The notes under the pieces are model-generated. The model saw only the letters and a program-made list of their open reading frames with translations. It was not told the DNA's origin and made no database searches. Below are positions 1,936-23,658 of a DNA stretch of 64,000 bases, one piece after another (positions within the stretch are counted from its first letter, which is position 1; each line of letters begins with the position of its first letter). The stretch is from an uncultured delta proteobacterium (GTDB taxonomy: Bacteria; Myxococcota; Myxococcia; Myxococcales; Myxococcaceae). The DNA is taken from assembly GCA_963771175.1 (NCBI GenBank), contig CAVYSY010000026.1:512001-576000 (forward strand). The letters are read 5' to 3'. A program made the position numbers and the translations under genes.

Positions 1936-3437
1936 ATGCCCCGCATCTGCTCGACGGTGACGCGCACGACGCCGCGCTCACCGCGCTCACCCACCCGGCG
2001 GACTGGAAGAACCCCACTCCCTCGGGGCGCTACAACCTCGTCGTCATTGGCGCCGGCACCGCGGGCCTCGTGGCCGCCGCGGGCGCGGCCGGGCTCGGCG
2101 GGAAGGTGGCCCTCATCGAGCGGCGCCTGCTGGGCGGCGACTGCCTCAACTTCGGCTGCGTGCCGACCAAGGCCCTCCTCGCCTCGGCGCGCGTGGCCGC
2201 CACCGTGCGCGGCGCGAGCTCCTACGGGGTGGAGGCCGGTGAGCCCCGGGTGGACTTCGCGCGGGTGATGGAGCGGGTGCGCTCGCTGCGTGCGGGCATC
2301 GCGCCCCACGACTCGGCCGAGCGCTTCCGCGGCCTGGGCGTGGACGTGTTCCTCGGCGAGGGCCGTTTCGTCGCGCCCGACGCGGTGGAGGTGGCAGGCC
2401 AGCGCCTCACCTTCGCGCGCGCCCTCATCACCACCGGAGGCAGCCCCTCGGTGCCGGACATCCCGGGGCTCGCGGAGGCGGGCTACCTCACCAACGAGAG
2501 CGTCTTCACCCTCACCGAGCTGCCCCCCCGGCTGGTGGTGCTCGGCGGAGGCCCCATCGGGTGCGAGCTGGCCCAGGCCTTCCGGCGGCTCGGGGCCCGG
2601 GTGGCGCTCGTCAACCAAGGCGCCCGTCTGCTGCCCAAGGAGGACCCGGATGTGAGCGAGGTGCTCGCCCGGCGCTTCGAGGCCGAGGGCATCACCTTGC
2701 ACCTCGGGGCGAGGGCCACCCGCGTCGAGGCCCATGGCCCGGTGAAGCGCCTGCGCTTCGAGCGCGAGGGCGCGGAGGGAGCCGTGGAGGGCGAGGTGCT
2801 GCTCGTGGCCACCGGCCGCGCGCCGGTGGTGGGCGGACTGGGGCTCGAAGCCGCCGGGGTCCAGCACGGTCCTCACGGCGTCGAGGTGGATGACCAGCTC
2901 CGCACCACCAACCCGCGCATCTACGCGGCGGGGGACATCTGCTCGCGCTTCAAGTTCACCCATGCCGCGGATGCACTCGCGCGGGTGGCACTGCAGAACG
3001 CCCTCTTCTTCGGCCGCAAGAAGGCCAGCGCGCTCGTGATTCCCTGGTGCACGTACACGGACCCCGAGGTGGCCCACGTGGGCCTCACCTCGCGCGAGGC
3101 CGAGGCCCTCGGCGCCGTCACCCTCACCGTGCCCATGTCCTCCATGGACCGTGCCCTCCTGGACGGCGAGACCGAGGGCTTCGGGCGCATCCACGTGGAC
3201 TCGAAGTCGGGCCGGCTGCTCGGCGGGACACTGGTGGGCGCGCACGCCGGGGAGAACATCGGCGAGCTCGCGCTGGCGATGACGATGGGCCTCACCGTGG
3301 GGGCGCTGTCCAACACCGTGCTCCCCTACCCCACCCGAGGCGAGGTGCTGAAGCGGCTCGGCGACGCGTGGAACCGCCGGCGGCTCACCCCTCGGACGAA
3401 GGGTTTCCTCACCCGGTTGCTCTCCTGGCGCCGGTGA
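1932..3437 (+). CDS. Mercuric reductase-like FAD-dependent pyridine nucleotide-disulfide oxidoreductase
   Basis: GAGTAG FAD motif, GGDCLNFGCVP redox disulfide, GGGPIG, YAAGD; lacks the C-terminal Cys-Cys of true MerA. Confidence 0.9.
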   Translation: MNAPHLLDGDAHDAALTALTHPADWKNPTPSGRYNLVVIGAGTAGLVAAAGAAGLGGKVALIERRLLGGDCLNFGCVPTKALLASARVAATVRGASSYGVEAGEPRVDFARVMERVRSLRAGIAPHDSAERFRGLGVDVFLGEGRFVAPDAVEVAGQRLTFARALITTGGSPSVPDIPGLAEAGYLTNESVFTLTELPPRLVVLGGGPIGCELAQAFRRLGARVALVNQGARLLPKEDPDVSEVLARRFEAEGITLHLGARATRVEAHGPVKRLRFEREGAEGAVEGEVLLVATGRAPVVGGLGLEAAGVQHGPHGVEVDDQLRTTNPRIYAAGDICSRFKFTHAADALARVALQNALFFGRKKASALVIPWCTYTDPEVAHVGLTSREAEALGAVTLTVPMSSMDRALLDGETEGFGRIHVDSKSGRLLGGTLVGAHAGENIGELALAMTMGLTVGALSNTVLPYPTRGEVLKRLGDAWNRRRLTPRTKGFLTRLLSWRR

Positions 3438-17618: not shown

Positions 17619-18572
17619 CTACCCGCGAGCACTCGCTTCCAGCGGACGAATTGACCCCGAGGGAGGAACAAGCCCCACCGCCGCGAAGAAGCGCGCGAGG
17701 TCCTCCGGCACGGGGGCCTCGAAACGCACCGGATTGCCCGTGCCCGGATGAGCCAGCTCCAGCGCCTGCGCATGCAACAGGCACCTCGGAGCCGGAATCC
17801 CTCCGGCCTGCGCCGCGCCTCCGTAGCGCTTGTCCCCGAGAATGGGCGCCCCGAGCGCCGTCAGGTGCGCGCGGAGCTGGTGCGTCCGGCCCGTCTGGGG
17901 CAGCAGCTCCACCAGACAGAAGTCCTCGCCCGCGTGCAGCACGCGGTACTCCGTGAGCGCGGGAATCCCATTCGCCGCACGGGTCGCGCGCCAGCGCCCT
18001 GGACGTGAAGGGTCCTTCGACAAGGGCAGGTCGATAACCCCCTGCGGCGGCAGCTCCACCGGCCCCACCGCCGCGAGGTAGCGCTTGCGGGCCCGGCCCT
18101 CGCGGAACTCCTCCGCCAGCGCGGTCGTCGCCTGGGGCGTCTTCCCGAACACCGTCACGCCGGAGGTCTCCCGGTCCAACCGGTGCACCAGCCCCGCCGG
18201 TCGCTTCAGGTGCGCGCCCACCCGGTCCACCAGGCTGTCCCCCACCCTCCCCTCCGTGGGCTGCGCCGTCATCCCCGCCGGCTTGTCCACCGCGATGACG
18301 TCCGCGTCCTCGTGCAGCACCCGGAGCTCCGGCGCGGAGGCCGGCGACACCGAGAGAGGGCTCTGTCCGCCCTCCTCCAGCACCACCGTCACCACCTGCC
18401 CCGGGGACGGCTTCGCCTTCGCGTCCCGGCACCGGCGTCCGGCCACGTACACCGCGCCCACGTTCACCAGGCGCTCGGCTTCCTCATGAGGAAGGTTCAG
18501 CTCCGCCGCCAGGGCCTCGCCCAGGGGGCGGTTCGCGTGGGGGGCGTCGACTCGGAAGGTGCGTCGCTTCAT
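17619..18572 (-). CDS. RluA-family pseudouridine synthase
   Basis: VDKPAG, HRLDRETSG, GRTHQLRAH, ILGDKRYG, LLHA. Confidence 0.92.
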   Translation of the reverse strand: MKRRTFRVDAPHANRPLGEALAAELNLPHEEAERLVNVGAVYVAGRRCRDAKAKPSPGQVVTVVLEEGGQSPLSVSPASAPELRVLHEDADVIAVDKPAGMTAQPTEGRVGDSLVDRVGAHLKRPAGLVHRLDRETSGVTVFGKTPQATTALAEEFREGRARKRYLAAVGPVELPPQGVIDLPLSKDPSRPGRWRATRAANGIPALTEYRVLHAGEDFCLVELLPQTGRTHQLRAHLTALGAPILGDKRYGGAAQAGGIPAPRCLLHAQALELAHPGTGNPVRFEAPVPEDLARFFAAVGLVPPSGSIRPLEASARG

Positions 18573-18585
18573 TCGGTGGACCTGC

Positions 18586-19623
<1,038 letters not shown>

Positions 19624-19732
19624 CGGGGAGACTCCACAGGTTGATGGCTGACGGGCTCGCCCGAACTCTGGCAAGCCCACCGAGGCGAGCGCAAGACCGG
19701 GCCCCCGGCGGGAGCCCGGCCAGCAGGCGGGC

Positions 19733-20518
19733 CTACACCACCCGGTCGCGCAGGAACGGATAGCGCTCGCGCACCTCCGCCACCGTGTGCGCGTCGAGGG
19801 TGACGAGCGGCACCCCGGATGTCGTGTCGGGCGCGAGCGCCTCGCCCCAGGGGCTGAAGGCGGCCGAGCCGCCGTCATACGTCAGTCCGCCCCCGGTCCC
19901 GATGCGGTTCACCCCGACGAAGTAGCACTGGTTCTCGATCGCGCGAGCCCGGAGCAGCGCGTCCCAATGCGCGCGCCGCGCCGCCGGCCAGTTGGCGATG
20001 AGAATCATCGCATCCACGTTCCTGGCCACCACGCCGAAGAGCTCGGGGAAGCGCAGCTCGTAGCAGATGAAGAGCGCCGTCCGCACACCGTCGATGGTCA
20101 GACAGGTGGACGAGCTCCCCGGCCGATAGTGCTCGTGCTCCCCGCCGTAGGCGAAGAGCCGCTGCTTGCGGTGCACCGCCACCACCCGGCCCGTCGGGTC
20201 GAAGGCGATCGCCGTGTTCACCGTGCAGGGAGCATTCGCATCGGCGCCGGGCTCCTCGCGCACGGCCACGCCGGCCACGAGCCAGACTCCGGAGCGCGCC
20301 GCCAGCTCGCCCAGACGCGACACCACCGGCCCTTCCAGCGGCGTCGCCTGCGTCTTGTCCATGGTGAAGCCGGTGGTGGCCATCTCCGGCAGCACGACGA
20401 GCCGCGCACCGCCGGCCGCGGCGCGAGCCACCAGCGTCTCCGCGGAGGCGAGCGAGGCCTCCGGCGAGTGCCACCCGATGTCGTACTCCCCGAGGGCCAC
20501 GGTCAGGCGGCCGGTCAT
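19733..20518 (-). CDS. Carbon-nitrogen hydrolase (nitrilase superfamily, YafV/omega-amidase-like)
   Basis: Catalytic triad motifs VLPEM, HRKQRLF and ICYELRFPE; ARAIENQ; overlaps the aminotransferase stop. Confidence 0.9.
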   Translation of the reverse strand: MTGRLTVALGEYDIGWHSPEASLASAETLVARAAAGGARLVVLPEMATTGFTMDKTQATPLEGPVVSRLGELAARSGVWLVAGVAVREEPGADANAPCTVNTAIAFDPTGRVVAVHRKQRLFAYGGEHEHYRPGSSSTCLTIDGVRTALFICYELRFPELFGVVARNVDAMILIANWPAARRAHWDALLRARAIENQCYFVGVNRIGTGGGLTYDGGSAAFSPWGEALAPDTTSGVPLVTLDAHTVAEVRERYPFLRDRVV

Positions 20519-21736
20519 CGCGCCTTGTCTCCCAGCAGCGCGGCGCGCAGCAGCTCCGCGCCCTCCAGCACCATCTTCGTGTCGCAGCTGAAGGCGAAGC
20601 GGAGGGCGTCGACGCACGCGTGGCCGAAGGCATCACCCGGCGCGCTGCCGATTCCCTGCGCCGCCAGTCGGGCCGAGAGCTCATCGGCGCTGGAGACGCC
20701 GAGCCGCTGGTAGAGGGACGAGTCGAGCTCCGCCCAGACGTAGAACGCCCCGCGCGGGTTGAACGGGCGCACTCCGGGGATTCCCTCCAGCGCCTTCATC
20801 AGCGCGTCGCGGCGCTGGCGGTACTCACCGCGCATCATCTGCAGGTTGTCCTGCGGCCCGGTCACCGCCGCCAGCGCGCCCCACTGCGCCAGGCTGTTCA
20901 CCCCGTTGATGGTGCAGCGCAGCAGCTTCTGCACCCGAAGCTGCAGCAGCGGCCAGGCGGTGTGCAGATAGCCCGTGCGCAGCCCGCTCATCGCGTGGCT
21001 CTTGGAGAAGGAGTAGACGCTGATCGACCCGCGGCGCCCAGTCGCCGGCCAGCGAGGCGAGGGAGTGGTGCACGTGCGGCTCGTAGATGACGTCCTCGTA
21101 CGCCTCGTCCGAGACGATCCACAGATCGTGTGCGCGCGCCAGGGCGAGGATCGCCTGCAGCGTCTCGCGCGGCATGACGGCGCCGGTGGGGTTGTGCGGC
21201 GTGTTGACGAAGATGGCCCGCGTGCGCGGAGTGATGGCCGCCTCGATGGCCTCGGGGCGGTAGGCGTAGCCCTCCTCGGCGCGCACCGGCACGCCCACCG
21301 GCGTCCCACCGGCGAGCTTCACGTTCTCCGCCACCTCGGTCCACATCGGATCGGGGAGGATGACCTCGTCACCCGGCTCGAGCAGCGCGCCGAAGGTCAC
21401 GTACAGCGCGTGCATCGCGCCGTTGGTGAGGAAGACCTCCTCGGCCTTCGCCCCCTTGATGCCGTTCTTCTGCCGCAGCTTCTCGGCGAGCGCCGCCCGC
21501 AGCTCCGGAATCCCGTCGTTGGGCACGTAGTGCGTCTTCCCGGCCCGCATCGCCACCTGGATCGCCTCCGCCACGTGCGGGGCAATCGAGAAGCTGGGAT
21601 CGCCGGACTCGAAGCGGATGACCCGCTTGCCGGCTGCCTGGGCGCGGAGCAGCCCCTCACGGATCTGCACGATCTTGCCGAAGGAGATCGAATCCAATCG
21701 ATGCGCGGGGAGCTTCTCGGTCACGTCCATTGACAT
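20515..21736 (-). CDS. PLP-dependent aminotransferase class I/II (one frameshift near 21030)
   Basis: NTPHNPTG, SDEAYE, SFSKSHAMSGLRTGY (PLP lysine), GAFY, LRFAFS; GAGGAG SD. Confidence 0.92.
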
Positions 21737-21770
21737 CGTCTTTCTCTCCTCACTGCGGGGGGATGGGGGC

Positions 21771-21806
21771 ACAAAAAAGCCCGCCAGCAGGGGGGGCTGG
21801 CGGGCT
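21771..21806 (-). terminator. Intrinsic terminator in the 5' leader (attenuator) of the aminotransferase operon
   Basis: Perfect 11-bp stem AGCCCGCCAGC/GCTGGCGGGCT, 7-nt loop, followed by TTTTTGT on the minus strand, 35 nt before the ATG. Confidence 0.88.
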
Positions 21807-21832
21807 CGAAGGGAATCCTCCAAAGCAAACAC

Positions 21833-21904
21833 CTAGCCTGGGCCCCTTGAGAGCTGGCTGCGCTTGAAGCGCTTGGCTTTGAGGCTGCTGGTGGTGGCGC
21901 ACAT
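21833..21904 (-). CDS. Putative attenuator leader peptide MCATTSSLKAKRFKRSQLSRGPG (23 aa)
   Basis: ATG preceded by AGGA at 8 nt, TAG stop 26 nt before the terminator; too short for the ORF track. Confidence 0.72.
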   Translation of the reverse strand: MCATTSSLKAKRFKRSQLSRGPG

Positions 21905-21925
21905 GTGTCGGATCCTGAACGAACG

Positions 21926-21954
21926 GACATAACGCAGTGCGACACCACGGTCAA
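21926..21954 (-). promoter_or_regulatory. Sigma70-type promoter for the leader/aminotransferase operon
   Basis: TTGACC-N17-TATGTC just upstream of the leader SD. Confidence 0.6.
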
Positions 21955-21988
21955 CGGCCCCTCCGACAACCATTCCCATGGGGAATGG

Positions 21989-22163
21989 ATTTCCTACAAT
22001 TTCGTAGGAAATGACCTCGGGAGCGACAAAAGCGTAGGACGCGGACGCATCCCCCGCGGCTGGCCTCCATGAACCGGTGGAGCACGGCTCTCCTCACCAC
22101 CGGGAGCCTCCAACAATCCTACGAATTTGTCGGTTCACGAGGTTCAACCTACAAATTCGTAGG
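21989..22163. promoter_or_regulatory. Four palindromic boxes, consensus CCTAC-N6-GTAGG (likely enhancer/operator sites)
   Basis: CCTACAATTTCGTAGG 21993, GCGACAAAAGCGTAGG 22023, CCTACGAATTTGTCGG 22118, CCTACAAATTCGTAGG 22148; 30-bp spacing within each pair. Confidence 0.78.
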
Positions 22164-22262
22164 ACTGGAGAACGGCCGGGAAACCCAGGCAGGCGAGCAC
22201 TCCCGCCCGGAGTCTCCCCACGTTTTCGCGGAGATACGTCGAAGGCCCCGTGCATGGGTGCG

Positions 22263-22279
22263 CTGGCCCTCCTGTTGCA
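22263..22279 (+). promoter_or_regulatory. Sigma54 (-24/-12) promoter of amtB
   Basis: CTGGCCCTCCTGTTGCA (TGGC-N7-TTGCA, GG-N10-GC) about 50 nt upstream of the amtB ATG. Confidence 0.75.
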
Positions 22280-22329
22280 GTGGCTTCGAGGAGTGCGGGC
22301 CCAGGGGGCCCATTGAGTGCGAGGTGCGG

Positions 22330-23658
22330 ATGCCGGGCGGAATCGTCGGAGCCGATGTGGCGTGGGTGCTGGTCGCGAGCGCGCTGGTCATGCTGATGGT
22401 ACCGGGGCTGGCGCTCTTCTACGGGGGAATGGTGCAGGGCAAGCACGTGCTCTCCACCCTGATGCACAGCTTCGGCGCGCTGGCGGTGGTGACGGTGGTG
22501 TGGGCGCTGTGGGGCTACTCGCTCGCCTTCGGAGAGAGCCACGGAGGCCTCATCGGAGGGGCCACTCACCTGTTCATGAAGGGCGTGGGGACAGAGGCCA
22601 AGGGCACGCTGCCGCACCTCCTCTTCTTCCTCTTCCAGGGCACCTTCGCCGCCATCACGCCCGCGCTCATCAGCGGTGCGTACGCCGAGCGGCTCAAGTT
22701 CTCCGCCTTCCTCCTCTTCACGGTGCTTTGGGCGACGTTCGTGTACGCGCCCGTGGCGCACTGGGTGTGGGCTCCGGACGGCTGGCTGCTGAAGCTGGGC
22801 GCGCTCGACTTCGCGGGTGGCGCCGTGGTGCACCTCACCAGTGGTGTCTCGGCGCTCGTGGTGGCGCTCGTGGTGGGCCGCCGCCGGGGCGCGCGGCAGC
22901 CTCCGCACAACCTCGCCTTCACCCTGTTGGGGGCGGGACTCCTCTGGTTTGGCTGGTTCGGCTTCAACGCGGGCAGTGCGCTCGCCGCCAACGAGCTGGC
23001 CGCGGTCGCCGCGGCCAACACCCACCTGGCGGCCGCGGCCGGCATGGTGGCGTGGGGCCTCGTGGACCTGCTGCGGCTGAAGAAGGTGACGGCGCTGGGA
23101 GCCGCCAGCGGGCTCGTGGCGGGTCTCGTGGGCATCACTCCGGCGGCGGGCTTCGTCTCGCCCCTGGGTGCGCTGGCCATCGGCCTCCTGGCCGGCACGG
23201 CCTGCTACGGCGGCGTCCTCCTCAAGGAGCACCTCGGCTACGACGATGCACTGGACGTGGTCGGCGTGCATGGCGTGGGAGGAGCGCTCGGCGCCCTGCT
23301 CACCGGCGTGTTCGCCACCGTGGCCGTCAATCCCGCCGGAGCCGAGGGCCTCCTCGCTGGCGGCAACTGGGCCCTGCTGGGCAAGCAGGCACTCAGTGTG
23401 CTGGCGGTGGCCGCCTTCTCCGCGCTCCTCACCTTCGTCCTCCTCAAGGGGGTGCAGGCGGTGGCGGGCCTGCGCGTGGATGCCGAGGCCGAGCACGAGG
23501 GGTTGGATCCCCACGTCCATGGCGAGCGCGCCTACCACACCGGCGGCATCTCCCTGGGCAGCCACCACGGCCCGACGCCGCGAGAGGCGTCCCCCTCGGA
23601 GGCCAGCGCCCCCGGGAAGAAGGCGCCGCTCAGCACCGAGCCCGTGATGGAGGGTTAG
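22330..23658 (+). CDS. amtB: Ammonium transporter
   Basis: PGLALFYGG, FQGTFAAIT, ERLKF, LDFAGGAVVH, LWFGWFGFNAGS, GLVGITP, DDALDVVGVHG; GAGGT SD before ATG 22330. Confidence 0.96.
   Translation: MPGGIVGADVAWVLVASALVMLMVPGLALFYGGMVQGKHVLSTLMHSFGALAVVTVVWALWGYSLAFGESHGGLIGGATHLFMKGVGTEAKGTLPHLLFFLFQGTFAAITPALISGAYAERLKFSAFLLFTVLWATFVYAPVAHWVWAPDGWLLKLGALDFAGGAVVHLTSGVSALVVALVVGRRRGARQPPHNLAFTLLGAGLLWFGWFGFNAGSALAANELAAVAAANTHLAAAAGMVAWGLVDLLRLKKVTALGAASGLVAGLVGITPAAGFVSPLGALAIGLLAGTACYGGVLLKEHLGYDDALDVVGVHGVGGALGALLTGVFATVAVNPAGAEGLLAGGNWALLGKQALSVLAVAAFSALLTFVLLKGVQAVAGLRVDAEAEHEGLDPHVHGERAYHTGGISLGSHHGPTPREASPSEASAPGKKAPLSTEPVMEG

Follow-up and report, generated by a model that had tools for sequence, protein, structure and literature searches.

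In enterobacteria, leader-peptide attenuators control the trp, his, leu, thr, ilv and pheA operons of amino-acid biosynthesis. A leader peptide with Lys codons reportedly controls a terminator in the lysine biosynthetic cluster of Thermus thermophilus, a case that a literature search did not find. The arrest peptides TnaC and SecM depend for their function on conserved residues near the C-terminus. Macrolide-resistance leader peptides are drug-sensing and reportedly stall the ribosome at Arg/Lys-X-Arg/Lys (+X+) motifs (PMC12583479). The locus described here lies in a stretch of 64,000 nucleotides (nt) from an uncultured myxobacterium, most likely of the genus Archangium (contig CAVYSY010000026.1, positions 512,001 to 576,000), below called the window, and belongs to a genome of 9.83 Mb. 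It is a leader, read on the minus strand and spanning 185 nt together with its promoter region, that precedes a two-gene operon for a class I aminotransferase and an omega-amidase-like C-N hydrolase. The leader is probably a transcription attenuator of some kind, with pairings of the 1:2 / 2:3 / 3:4 type. That it is ribosome-mediated, with a leader peptide controlling the two-gene operon, is our tentative reading and is given a probability of roughly 0.45.

The Archangium leader resembles the classical attenuators in having a short, promoter-proximal open reading frame (ORF), the 1:2 / 2:3 / 3:4 arrangement, an intrinsic terminator immediately ahead of the first structural gene and a stop codon whose position makes a ribosome terminating there cover segment 2. 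It differs from them in that there is no run of codons for a single amino acid and no visible Shine-Dalgarno sequence in four of the five species, in that the operon encodes a transaminase/omega-amidase pair rather than a biosynthetic pathway, and in being confined to part of one genus. Compared with the Thermus case, both organism and operon are unrelated, and the Lys codons of the Archangium leader are split by Ala and then followed by Arg. The K-A-K sequence fits the +X+ pattern and is located where a stall would free the antiterminator. Unlike the genes behind the macrolide-resistance leaders, however, the downstream genes in Archangium are metabolic, and the pattern is easily met by chance in a peptide rich in Lys and Arg. 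In TnaC and SecM, too, the ribosome on a short upstream ORF controls expression downstream, but the C-terminal residues of the Archangium peptide vary by species and are in one case read in another frame, and a stall at the leader stop would favour termination over read-through. Riboswitch expression platforms (the anti-antiterminator P1 type) likewise have three mutually exclusive helices that are similar in stability, whereas the Archangium leader has neither an Rfam match nor a conserved aptamer-like core.

Upstream of the ORF a -35-like hexamer TTGACC (21949..21954, minus strand as for all leader elements below) and a -10-like hexamer TATGTC (21926..21931) are separated by a spacer of 17 nt. 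TTGAC is kept in all six loci that retain the promoter region. The relatives have the -10-like hexamers TATGAC, TAGGAT, CATCAT or CATTAT, which shift in register while the 17-nt spacing is constant. A scan for consensus promoters did not call the leader hexamers because its rule demands T at position 6 of the second hexamer, which ends in C. A weak Shine-Dalgarno-like AGGA (21913..21916) stands 8 nt ahead of the ATG of the leader ORF MCATTSSLKAKRFKRSQLSRGPG, which has 23 codons and a TAG (21833..21904; ATG at 21904, TAG at 21835-21833). Segment 1, CCTCAAAGCCAAGCGC (21869..21884), encodes L-K-A-K-R and is the 5' strand of hairpin 1:2. Segment 2, GGGGC...TAG GTGTTTGCTTTGGAGG (21817..21846), contains the leader stop, and its partner is either segment 1 or the 5' arm of the terminator. 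The 3' strand of hairpin 1:2 is GTGTTTGCTTTGGAGG (21817-21832), and the antiterminator 2:3, obtained with constrained folding as the alternative to the terminator, extends over 21789..21846 with 19 pairs. A terminator scan called the intrinsic terminator 3:4 (21773..21807) with a stem of 12 pairs, nine of them G-C, at 21807-21777, a loop of 7 nt and T6. The ATG of the aminotransferase (21736) follows 36 nt after the terminator and is preceded by the Shine-Dalgarno sequence GAGGAGAG (21744-21751). The promoter, AGGA, ORF, terminator and aminotransferase start listed in the first-pass annotation are thus all present in the sequence at the places given for them; the terminator stem, described there as 11 bp with a U tract, has 12 pairs. 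In our own scan the 9.83-Mb genome had 178 strong terminator-like sites, which makes a terminator within a given 100-nt leader and on the correct strand an approximately 1-in-1000 event.

The pairings 1:2, 2:3 and 3:4 are mutually exclusive, similar in stability and formable in all five leaders, those of the window and of four relatives, as the first-pass annotation had proposed for the window. The energies in the five species are -21.3 to -26.4 kcal/mol for hairpin 1:2, -24.2 to -28.6 kcal/mol for the antiterminator and -23.1 to -25.0 kcal/mol for the terminator. Both alternative pairings worked out by hand in that annotation were recovered by folding. Segment 1 (21884-21869) pairs with GTGTTTGCTTTGGAGG in the minimum-energy fold, and the pairing GGCU-A-GGUG : CGCC-AGCC is part of a larger 2:3 alternative that is seen once the 3' arm of the terminator is withheld. 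This larger structure has four helices, GGGGCU:AGCCCC, GGUG:CGCC, GCUU:GAGC and GGAGG:CCUUC, and 93 of the 95 cells in its alignment are paired. When the K-A-K-R codons were masked by a ribosome footprint and the 3' arm was withheld, constrained folding gave the antiterminator in all five species, while a footprint at the stop codon gave the terminator in all five. Stalls with the A site anywhere from the first Lys codon to about two codons past the Arg leave segment 2 free, and later positions cover it.

The ribosome-mediated reading can be set out as follows. Transcription would begin about 15-25 nt ahead of an ORF of 21-23 codons. By default segment 1 would pair with segment 2, the terminator with its 12 bp and U6 would form, and transcription would stop 36 nt before the start of the aminotransferase. 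A ribosome that reaches the leader stop would cover segment 2, again with termination as the result. A ribosome stalled on the Lys-Ala-Lys-Arg codons would instead cover segment 1 and the apical stem and leave segment 2 free to form its 19 pairs with the 5' arm of the terminator, so that the polymerase would read into the operon. We infer translation of the ORF and stalling as the signal; what is sensed would be a shortage of charged Lys or Arg tRNA, or a general shortage of amino acids or nitrogen. Drug-induced stalling at the K-A-K (+X+) motif could be another signal. Sensing by the ribosome appears to be the best single mechanism because the start, frame and stop position of the ORF are kept and because the stall geometry fits.

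The leader is highly conserved in the parts that take part in the pairings. All 16 nt of segment 1 are invariant in the five species, as are 11 consecutive nt at the 3' end of segment 2. The fourfold-degenerate sites of the adjacent gene, for comparison, are invariant at 64 of 119 positions (54%), and at that rate 16 invariant nt in a row would be expected at a given place with a probability of about 5e-5. Judged from the alignment, it is this conservation, rather than the folding energies, that is the real support for a switch. The terminator is retained at all seven orthologous loci and has one compensatory change, from G-C to A-U. At these seven loci the distance from the U tract to the ATG of the aminotransferase is only 28-55 nt, which leaves no room for a further promoter, and the operon must therefore be transcribed through the terminator.

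All five leaders contain an ORF of 21-23 codons: MCATTSSLKAKRFKRSQLSRGPG, MLATQKTNLKAKRNQLSRGALVR, MHTTKTSLKAKRGQLCKWGTG, MLTTLDTLLKAKRSRLYERGSG and MLTTLNTLLKAKRNRLFARGSG. The CATG at the start is invariant, the distance from the ATG to segment 1 is 18 or 21 nt, and the other length differences between the window ORF and those of the relatives are +9 and -3 nt in an alignment read by eye. The start and the frame into segment 1 are kept in all five, and the stop codon is inside segment 2 in all five. In one relative, G001, a 1-nt deletion coincides with a change of TAG to CAG and the ORF ends at a TGA 4 nt later. The placement of the stop is suggestive but not strong, since the conserved TAGGTGA supplies stops in two of the three frames, chance alone would readily leave 22 codons open at 69% G+C, and apart from L-K-A-K-R the peptide shows little conservation. 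The ORF frame has the highest coding score of the three frames in every one of the five species. The start region is poor in G (5-9 G per 43-46 nt), and its mean unpaired probability is 0.47-0.70 as against 0.38-0.43 in the rest of the leader; in these folding calculations an open, G-poor start region is compatible with initiation independent of a Shine-Dalgarno sequence. Segment 1 contains the rare codon AAA, found at 0.72 per 1000 codons compared with 26.9 for AAG and decoded by a single tRNA-Lys(UUU) gene, and there are two tRNA-Lys(CUU) genes.

The comparison of genomes places the leader with the operon. A DNA query of 351 nt matched seven of 41 genomes, every one of them of the genus of the window, and an orthologue of the aminotransferase with 90-92% identity was found in the same seven among 18 genomes of the genus. 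The whole unit of promoter, ORF, hairpin and terminator stands ahead of the orthologous aminotransferase/omega-amidase operon in five of these seven (the window, G001, G005, G013 and G004). The two other loci are reduced. In G009 (L007 1452-1532) the promoter and the terminator are retained and the sequence from just past the presumed start up to the terminator is lost, and in G007 (L006 near 1641-1720) an interior piece of the ammonium transporter gene amt is fused directly to the terminator. Both deletion variants have an intact aminotransferase. In G005 the unit stands after an acyltransferase gene, without amt and without the palindromes found between amt and the leader in the window, which indicates that the unit belongs to and travels with the operon and not with the amt intergenic region.

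A covariance model of the leader, run over 151 genomes of the family, gave matches in 12 genomes, of which the true ones were only those in G000, G013 and the truncated locus of G009. The remaining 11 matches were rejected as ordinary terminators behind genes or tRNAs. According to this model there is one copy per genome, invariably ahead of the aminotransferase operon. In a sample of 301 genomes of the order, seven further genomes, belonging to other families, have an aminotransferase homologue (E <= 1e-110) with 50-54% identity, and the leader is ahead of none of these seven. A scan of named genome records with the leader pattern gave three Archangium records and one chance match within coding DNA. 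A scan of metagenome contigs with a loose pattern gave at least 120 matches, and none of the 120 loci screened had segment 1 together with a terminator. The leader is linked to the operon and narrow in distribution, with carriers in five species of a single genus, most likely Archangium.

A number of observations weigh against the ribosome-mediated reading. Some concern the folds. With a stalled ribosome, the terminator persists in the full-length minimum-energy fold of four of the five species. The ribosome-mask folding proposed in the first-pass annotation thus gives the expected antiterminator in all five leaders when the 3' arm is withheld, but not in the full-length fold of these four, and since the terminator wins this equilibrium fold, read-through rests on a kinetic argument. 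As to the covariation of leaders also proposed there, no base pair covaries in 1:2 or 2:3 across the five leaders, and 16 of the 19 antiterminator pairs never vary. Dinucleotide shuffles are at least as stable in a proportion of 0.038-0.172 for the antiterminator (z -1.0 to -2.0) and 0.158-0.540 for hairpin 1:2 (z about 0); in a sequence so rich in G+C, energy by itself does not clearly set the alternative pairings apart from chance. Other points concern the ORF, which is missing at two of the seven orthologous loci although the aminotransferase is intact. The peptide shows little conservation beyond the block of invariant nucleotides, and in the closest relative (X10, 98% identical) the leader ORF has two changes, both of them non-synonymous. 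The leader ORFs are only in the top 17-54% by coding score of 1564 small ORFs from uncovered parts of the genome, a background that includes real short or broken genes. No Shine-Dalgarno sequence was seen in the four relatives; the AGGA that the first-pass annotation took for one is present in the window only, and the X10 contig has GGGA. The five leaders have no tandem run of codons for a single amino acid, and only K-A-K-R is conserved. Matches of the aminotransferase to NCBIfam are all below the cut-offs, with no equivalog and no tie to Lys or Arg metabolism. The contigs of three soil metatranscriptomes reach only parts of the aminotransferase coding region (88-99% likeness) and not the leader, and are uninformative on its expression. 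The idea that RGPG at the end of the ORF makes it an arrest peptide was abandoned, as the five peptides end in RGPG, RGSG, RGSG, WGTG and, after a frame shift, RGALVR.

Several of these points are shared with an alternative that we consider rather unlikely, namely a terminator/antiterminator attenuator with a non-ribosomal sensor, in which the ORF is incidental. The sensor would be a metabolite, as in an undescribed riboswitch, or an RNA-binding protein or a small RNA, and its target would be the C/A-rich 5' part together with segment 1, or the hairpin of 62-68 nt. Segments 1 and 2 are invariant also at third codon positions and at the rare AAA, and most changes in the apical stem exchange A and G opposite U and alter the peptide, as would be expected under such a reading. 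K-A-K-R is conserved at the nucleotide level, and pairing of the RNA could, on this alignment, explain its conservation equally well. The lack of a Shine-Dalgarno sequence in the four relatives, the unexceptional coding likeness and the ease with which a 22-codon frame stays open at this G+C content point the same way. Against a sensor of this kind, the hairpin is without a conserved multi-helix core and no curated covariance model for a riboswitch or other cis-regulatory RNA in Rfam matched; a search with its 4227 families at E up to 10 had only RybB and anti-hemB as matches on the leader, both on the terminator and with scores far short of the gathering thresholds. Among the genes adjoining the operon, none for an RNA-binding regulator was seen. 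The ATG, the frame and the stop position are kept in five of five leaders, including G001 with its switch from TAG to TGA.

Alternative folds not clearly more stable than shuffles, and the terminators retained in G009 and G007 in spite of the lost leader body, would also agree with a separate small gene, a small RNA of about 145 nt or a peptide of 21-23 amino acids with its own promoter and terminator, the operon being expressed by constant leakage with no switch. Peptide genes with their own terminators do exist ahead of other genes in this genome (C36 near 85.3 kb, C24 near 268.4 kb). Such a gene is nevertheless improbable, as all five leaders retain the 19 pairs possible between segment 2 and the terminator arm, the covariance model finds a single copy per genome, always ahead of the aminotransferase operon, and the peptide is unconserved beyond the block constrained by the RNA; an exact look-up of the five peptides in a collection of 15 billion proteins gave no record. 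The conservation of segment 2 could alternatively reflect a sigma-54 promoter, which is very improbable. Sigma-54 promoters have GG and GC elements 10 nt apart with the letters TGGCAC / TTGC. A GG-N8-TTGCT sequence at 21838-21824 on the minus strand agrees with this in spacing and in its GG/TTGC letters, so that the operon would start just before the hairpin under a nitrogen activator using the palindromes. The minimal pattern GG-N8-TTGCW is itself enriched in the window (20 found, 10.8 +/- 3.5 expected), and the palindrome-bearing amt and glnA loci have better matches. A transcript from this site would, however, begin about 5 nt before the terminator of 12 bp and U6 and be unable to form the antiterminator. 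The -24 element is poor (TGGTTAG or AGGCTAG) and TTGC is changed to TCGC in X10 and to CTGC in G005. G005 moreover keeps the element without the upstream palindromes, and G009 has lost it and keeps the sigma-70-like promoter.

An extension of the ribosome-mediated reading, which must be regarded as a long shot, is that L-K-A-K-R is a translation-stress sensor, responding either through a +X+ stall caused by an exit-tunnel compound or to nitrogen shortage through the Lys/Arg codons including the rare AAA, and coupled to a salvage operon for glutamine transaminase and omega-amidase. If true, a predatory soil myxobacterium would tie ribosome stalling to a salvage operon whose neighbour is an ammonium transporter under sigma-54 control.

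The gene for this transporter, amt, is divergent from the leader on the plus strand (22264..23658, start about 22325; Pfam/NCBIfam Amt) and has a sigma-54-type -24/-12 element, TGGCCCTCCTGTTGCA (22264-22279, plus strand), which was read from the sequence and is conserved in relatives. Four palindromes of 16-18 bp, TCCTAC-N6-GTAGGA, lie between amt and the leader (21992-22009, 22023-22039, 22117-22133 and 22147-22164) and are conserved in four relatives. In the strict form with an A+T-rich centre they occur at only one other locus in the 9.8-Mb genome, where four sites lie between glnA (glutamine synthetase) and a gene for a GAF/sigma-54 activator (G000 C6:13.6-13.9 kb; L161 3130-3400). A sigma-54-type element is also found ahead of glnA (L161 about 3030-3045, minus strand). 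The palindromes are probably the binding sites of the GAF/sigma-54 activator in a small nitrogen regulon and serve the divergent amt promoter. The operon adjoins this regulon yet would be independent of it, to judge from the arrangement in G005. Weak Rfam matches to mir-3524 at 22106-22176 on both strands are due to two of the palindromes in inverted orientation and not to an RNA gene. Between the last palindrome and the -35 hexamer the window has an insertion of about 21 nt (21970-21989), itself the inverted repeat CCATTCCCCATGGGGAATGG, which is missing from the four relatives; its ATG generates a 48-codon extension in the list of ORFs.

The class I (AspAT Ib-like) aminotransferase is encoded at 20515..21736 on the minus strand in two frames with a break near 21026, and both pieces match Pfam PF00155. 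The X10 contig has one base fewer at 21026, which unites the frames, and the break therefore appears to be an assembly error or a strain-specific lesion. The orthologue in L002 is intact with 407 amino acids, and among solved structures it is closest to enzymes of the AspAT Ib type. The second gene of the conserved operon, the omega-amidase-like C-N hydrolase, is at 19733..20617 on the minus strand; its best NCBIfam match is to YafV-type amidohydrolase, with 145 bits and below the cut-off. In G001 the operon consists of the aminotransferase and the C-N hydrolase alone and is followed by a convergent dehydrogenase gene. A link to rRNA modification or resistance through a downstream pseudouridine synthase was ruled out because the G001 operon stops after the C-N hydrolase. 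Downstream of the C-N hydrolase the window has an HDAC-like gene on the minus strand, split over two frames (about 18586-19878 / 17619-19052). The assembly of the window, which is 82% complete, probably carries indel errors, as both the aminotransferase and the HDAC-like gene are split.

Genome-wide, 32 candidates for leader terminators were found. Eleven of them belong to a repeat element, the others stand behind tRNAs or small genes, and there is no classical attenuator with codon runs among the 32. The filter left out the leader of the window itself, presumably because of the broken aminotransferase frame, and the counts are lower bounds. A terminator-like palindromic repeat with the core CCTGTCCGAC-N-GTCGGACAGG followed by T5 has 71 copies in G000 (e.g. 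C24:171143, C27:56003 and C52:143870). The small peptide genes of G000 at C36 near 85.3 kb (plus strand) and C24 near 268.4 kb (minus strand) have strong Shine-Dalgarno sequences and their own terminators. They encode tandem copies ending in ...GGGTFF, and MYVKAQIVRVSATSDKCTCSNGMGTVIIAA, and may be genes for precursor peptides.

A full-text literature search found no paper describing leader-peptide attenuation in myxobacteria, in agreement with the first-pass annotation, nor any description of the leader element itself. It would be a mechanism of known type in which the host group is new. The general importance is modest, as the leader is found in five species of one genus only and the support is computational. 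If the ribosome-mediated reading is confirmed, ribosome-coupled attenuation would operate in genomes that are very rich in G+C and have few strong intrinsic terminators, and myxobacterial genetics would gain a compact regulatory part of about 150 nt. The translation status of the cell would also be linked to a transaminase/omega-amidase pair beside the nitrogen regulon.

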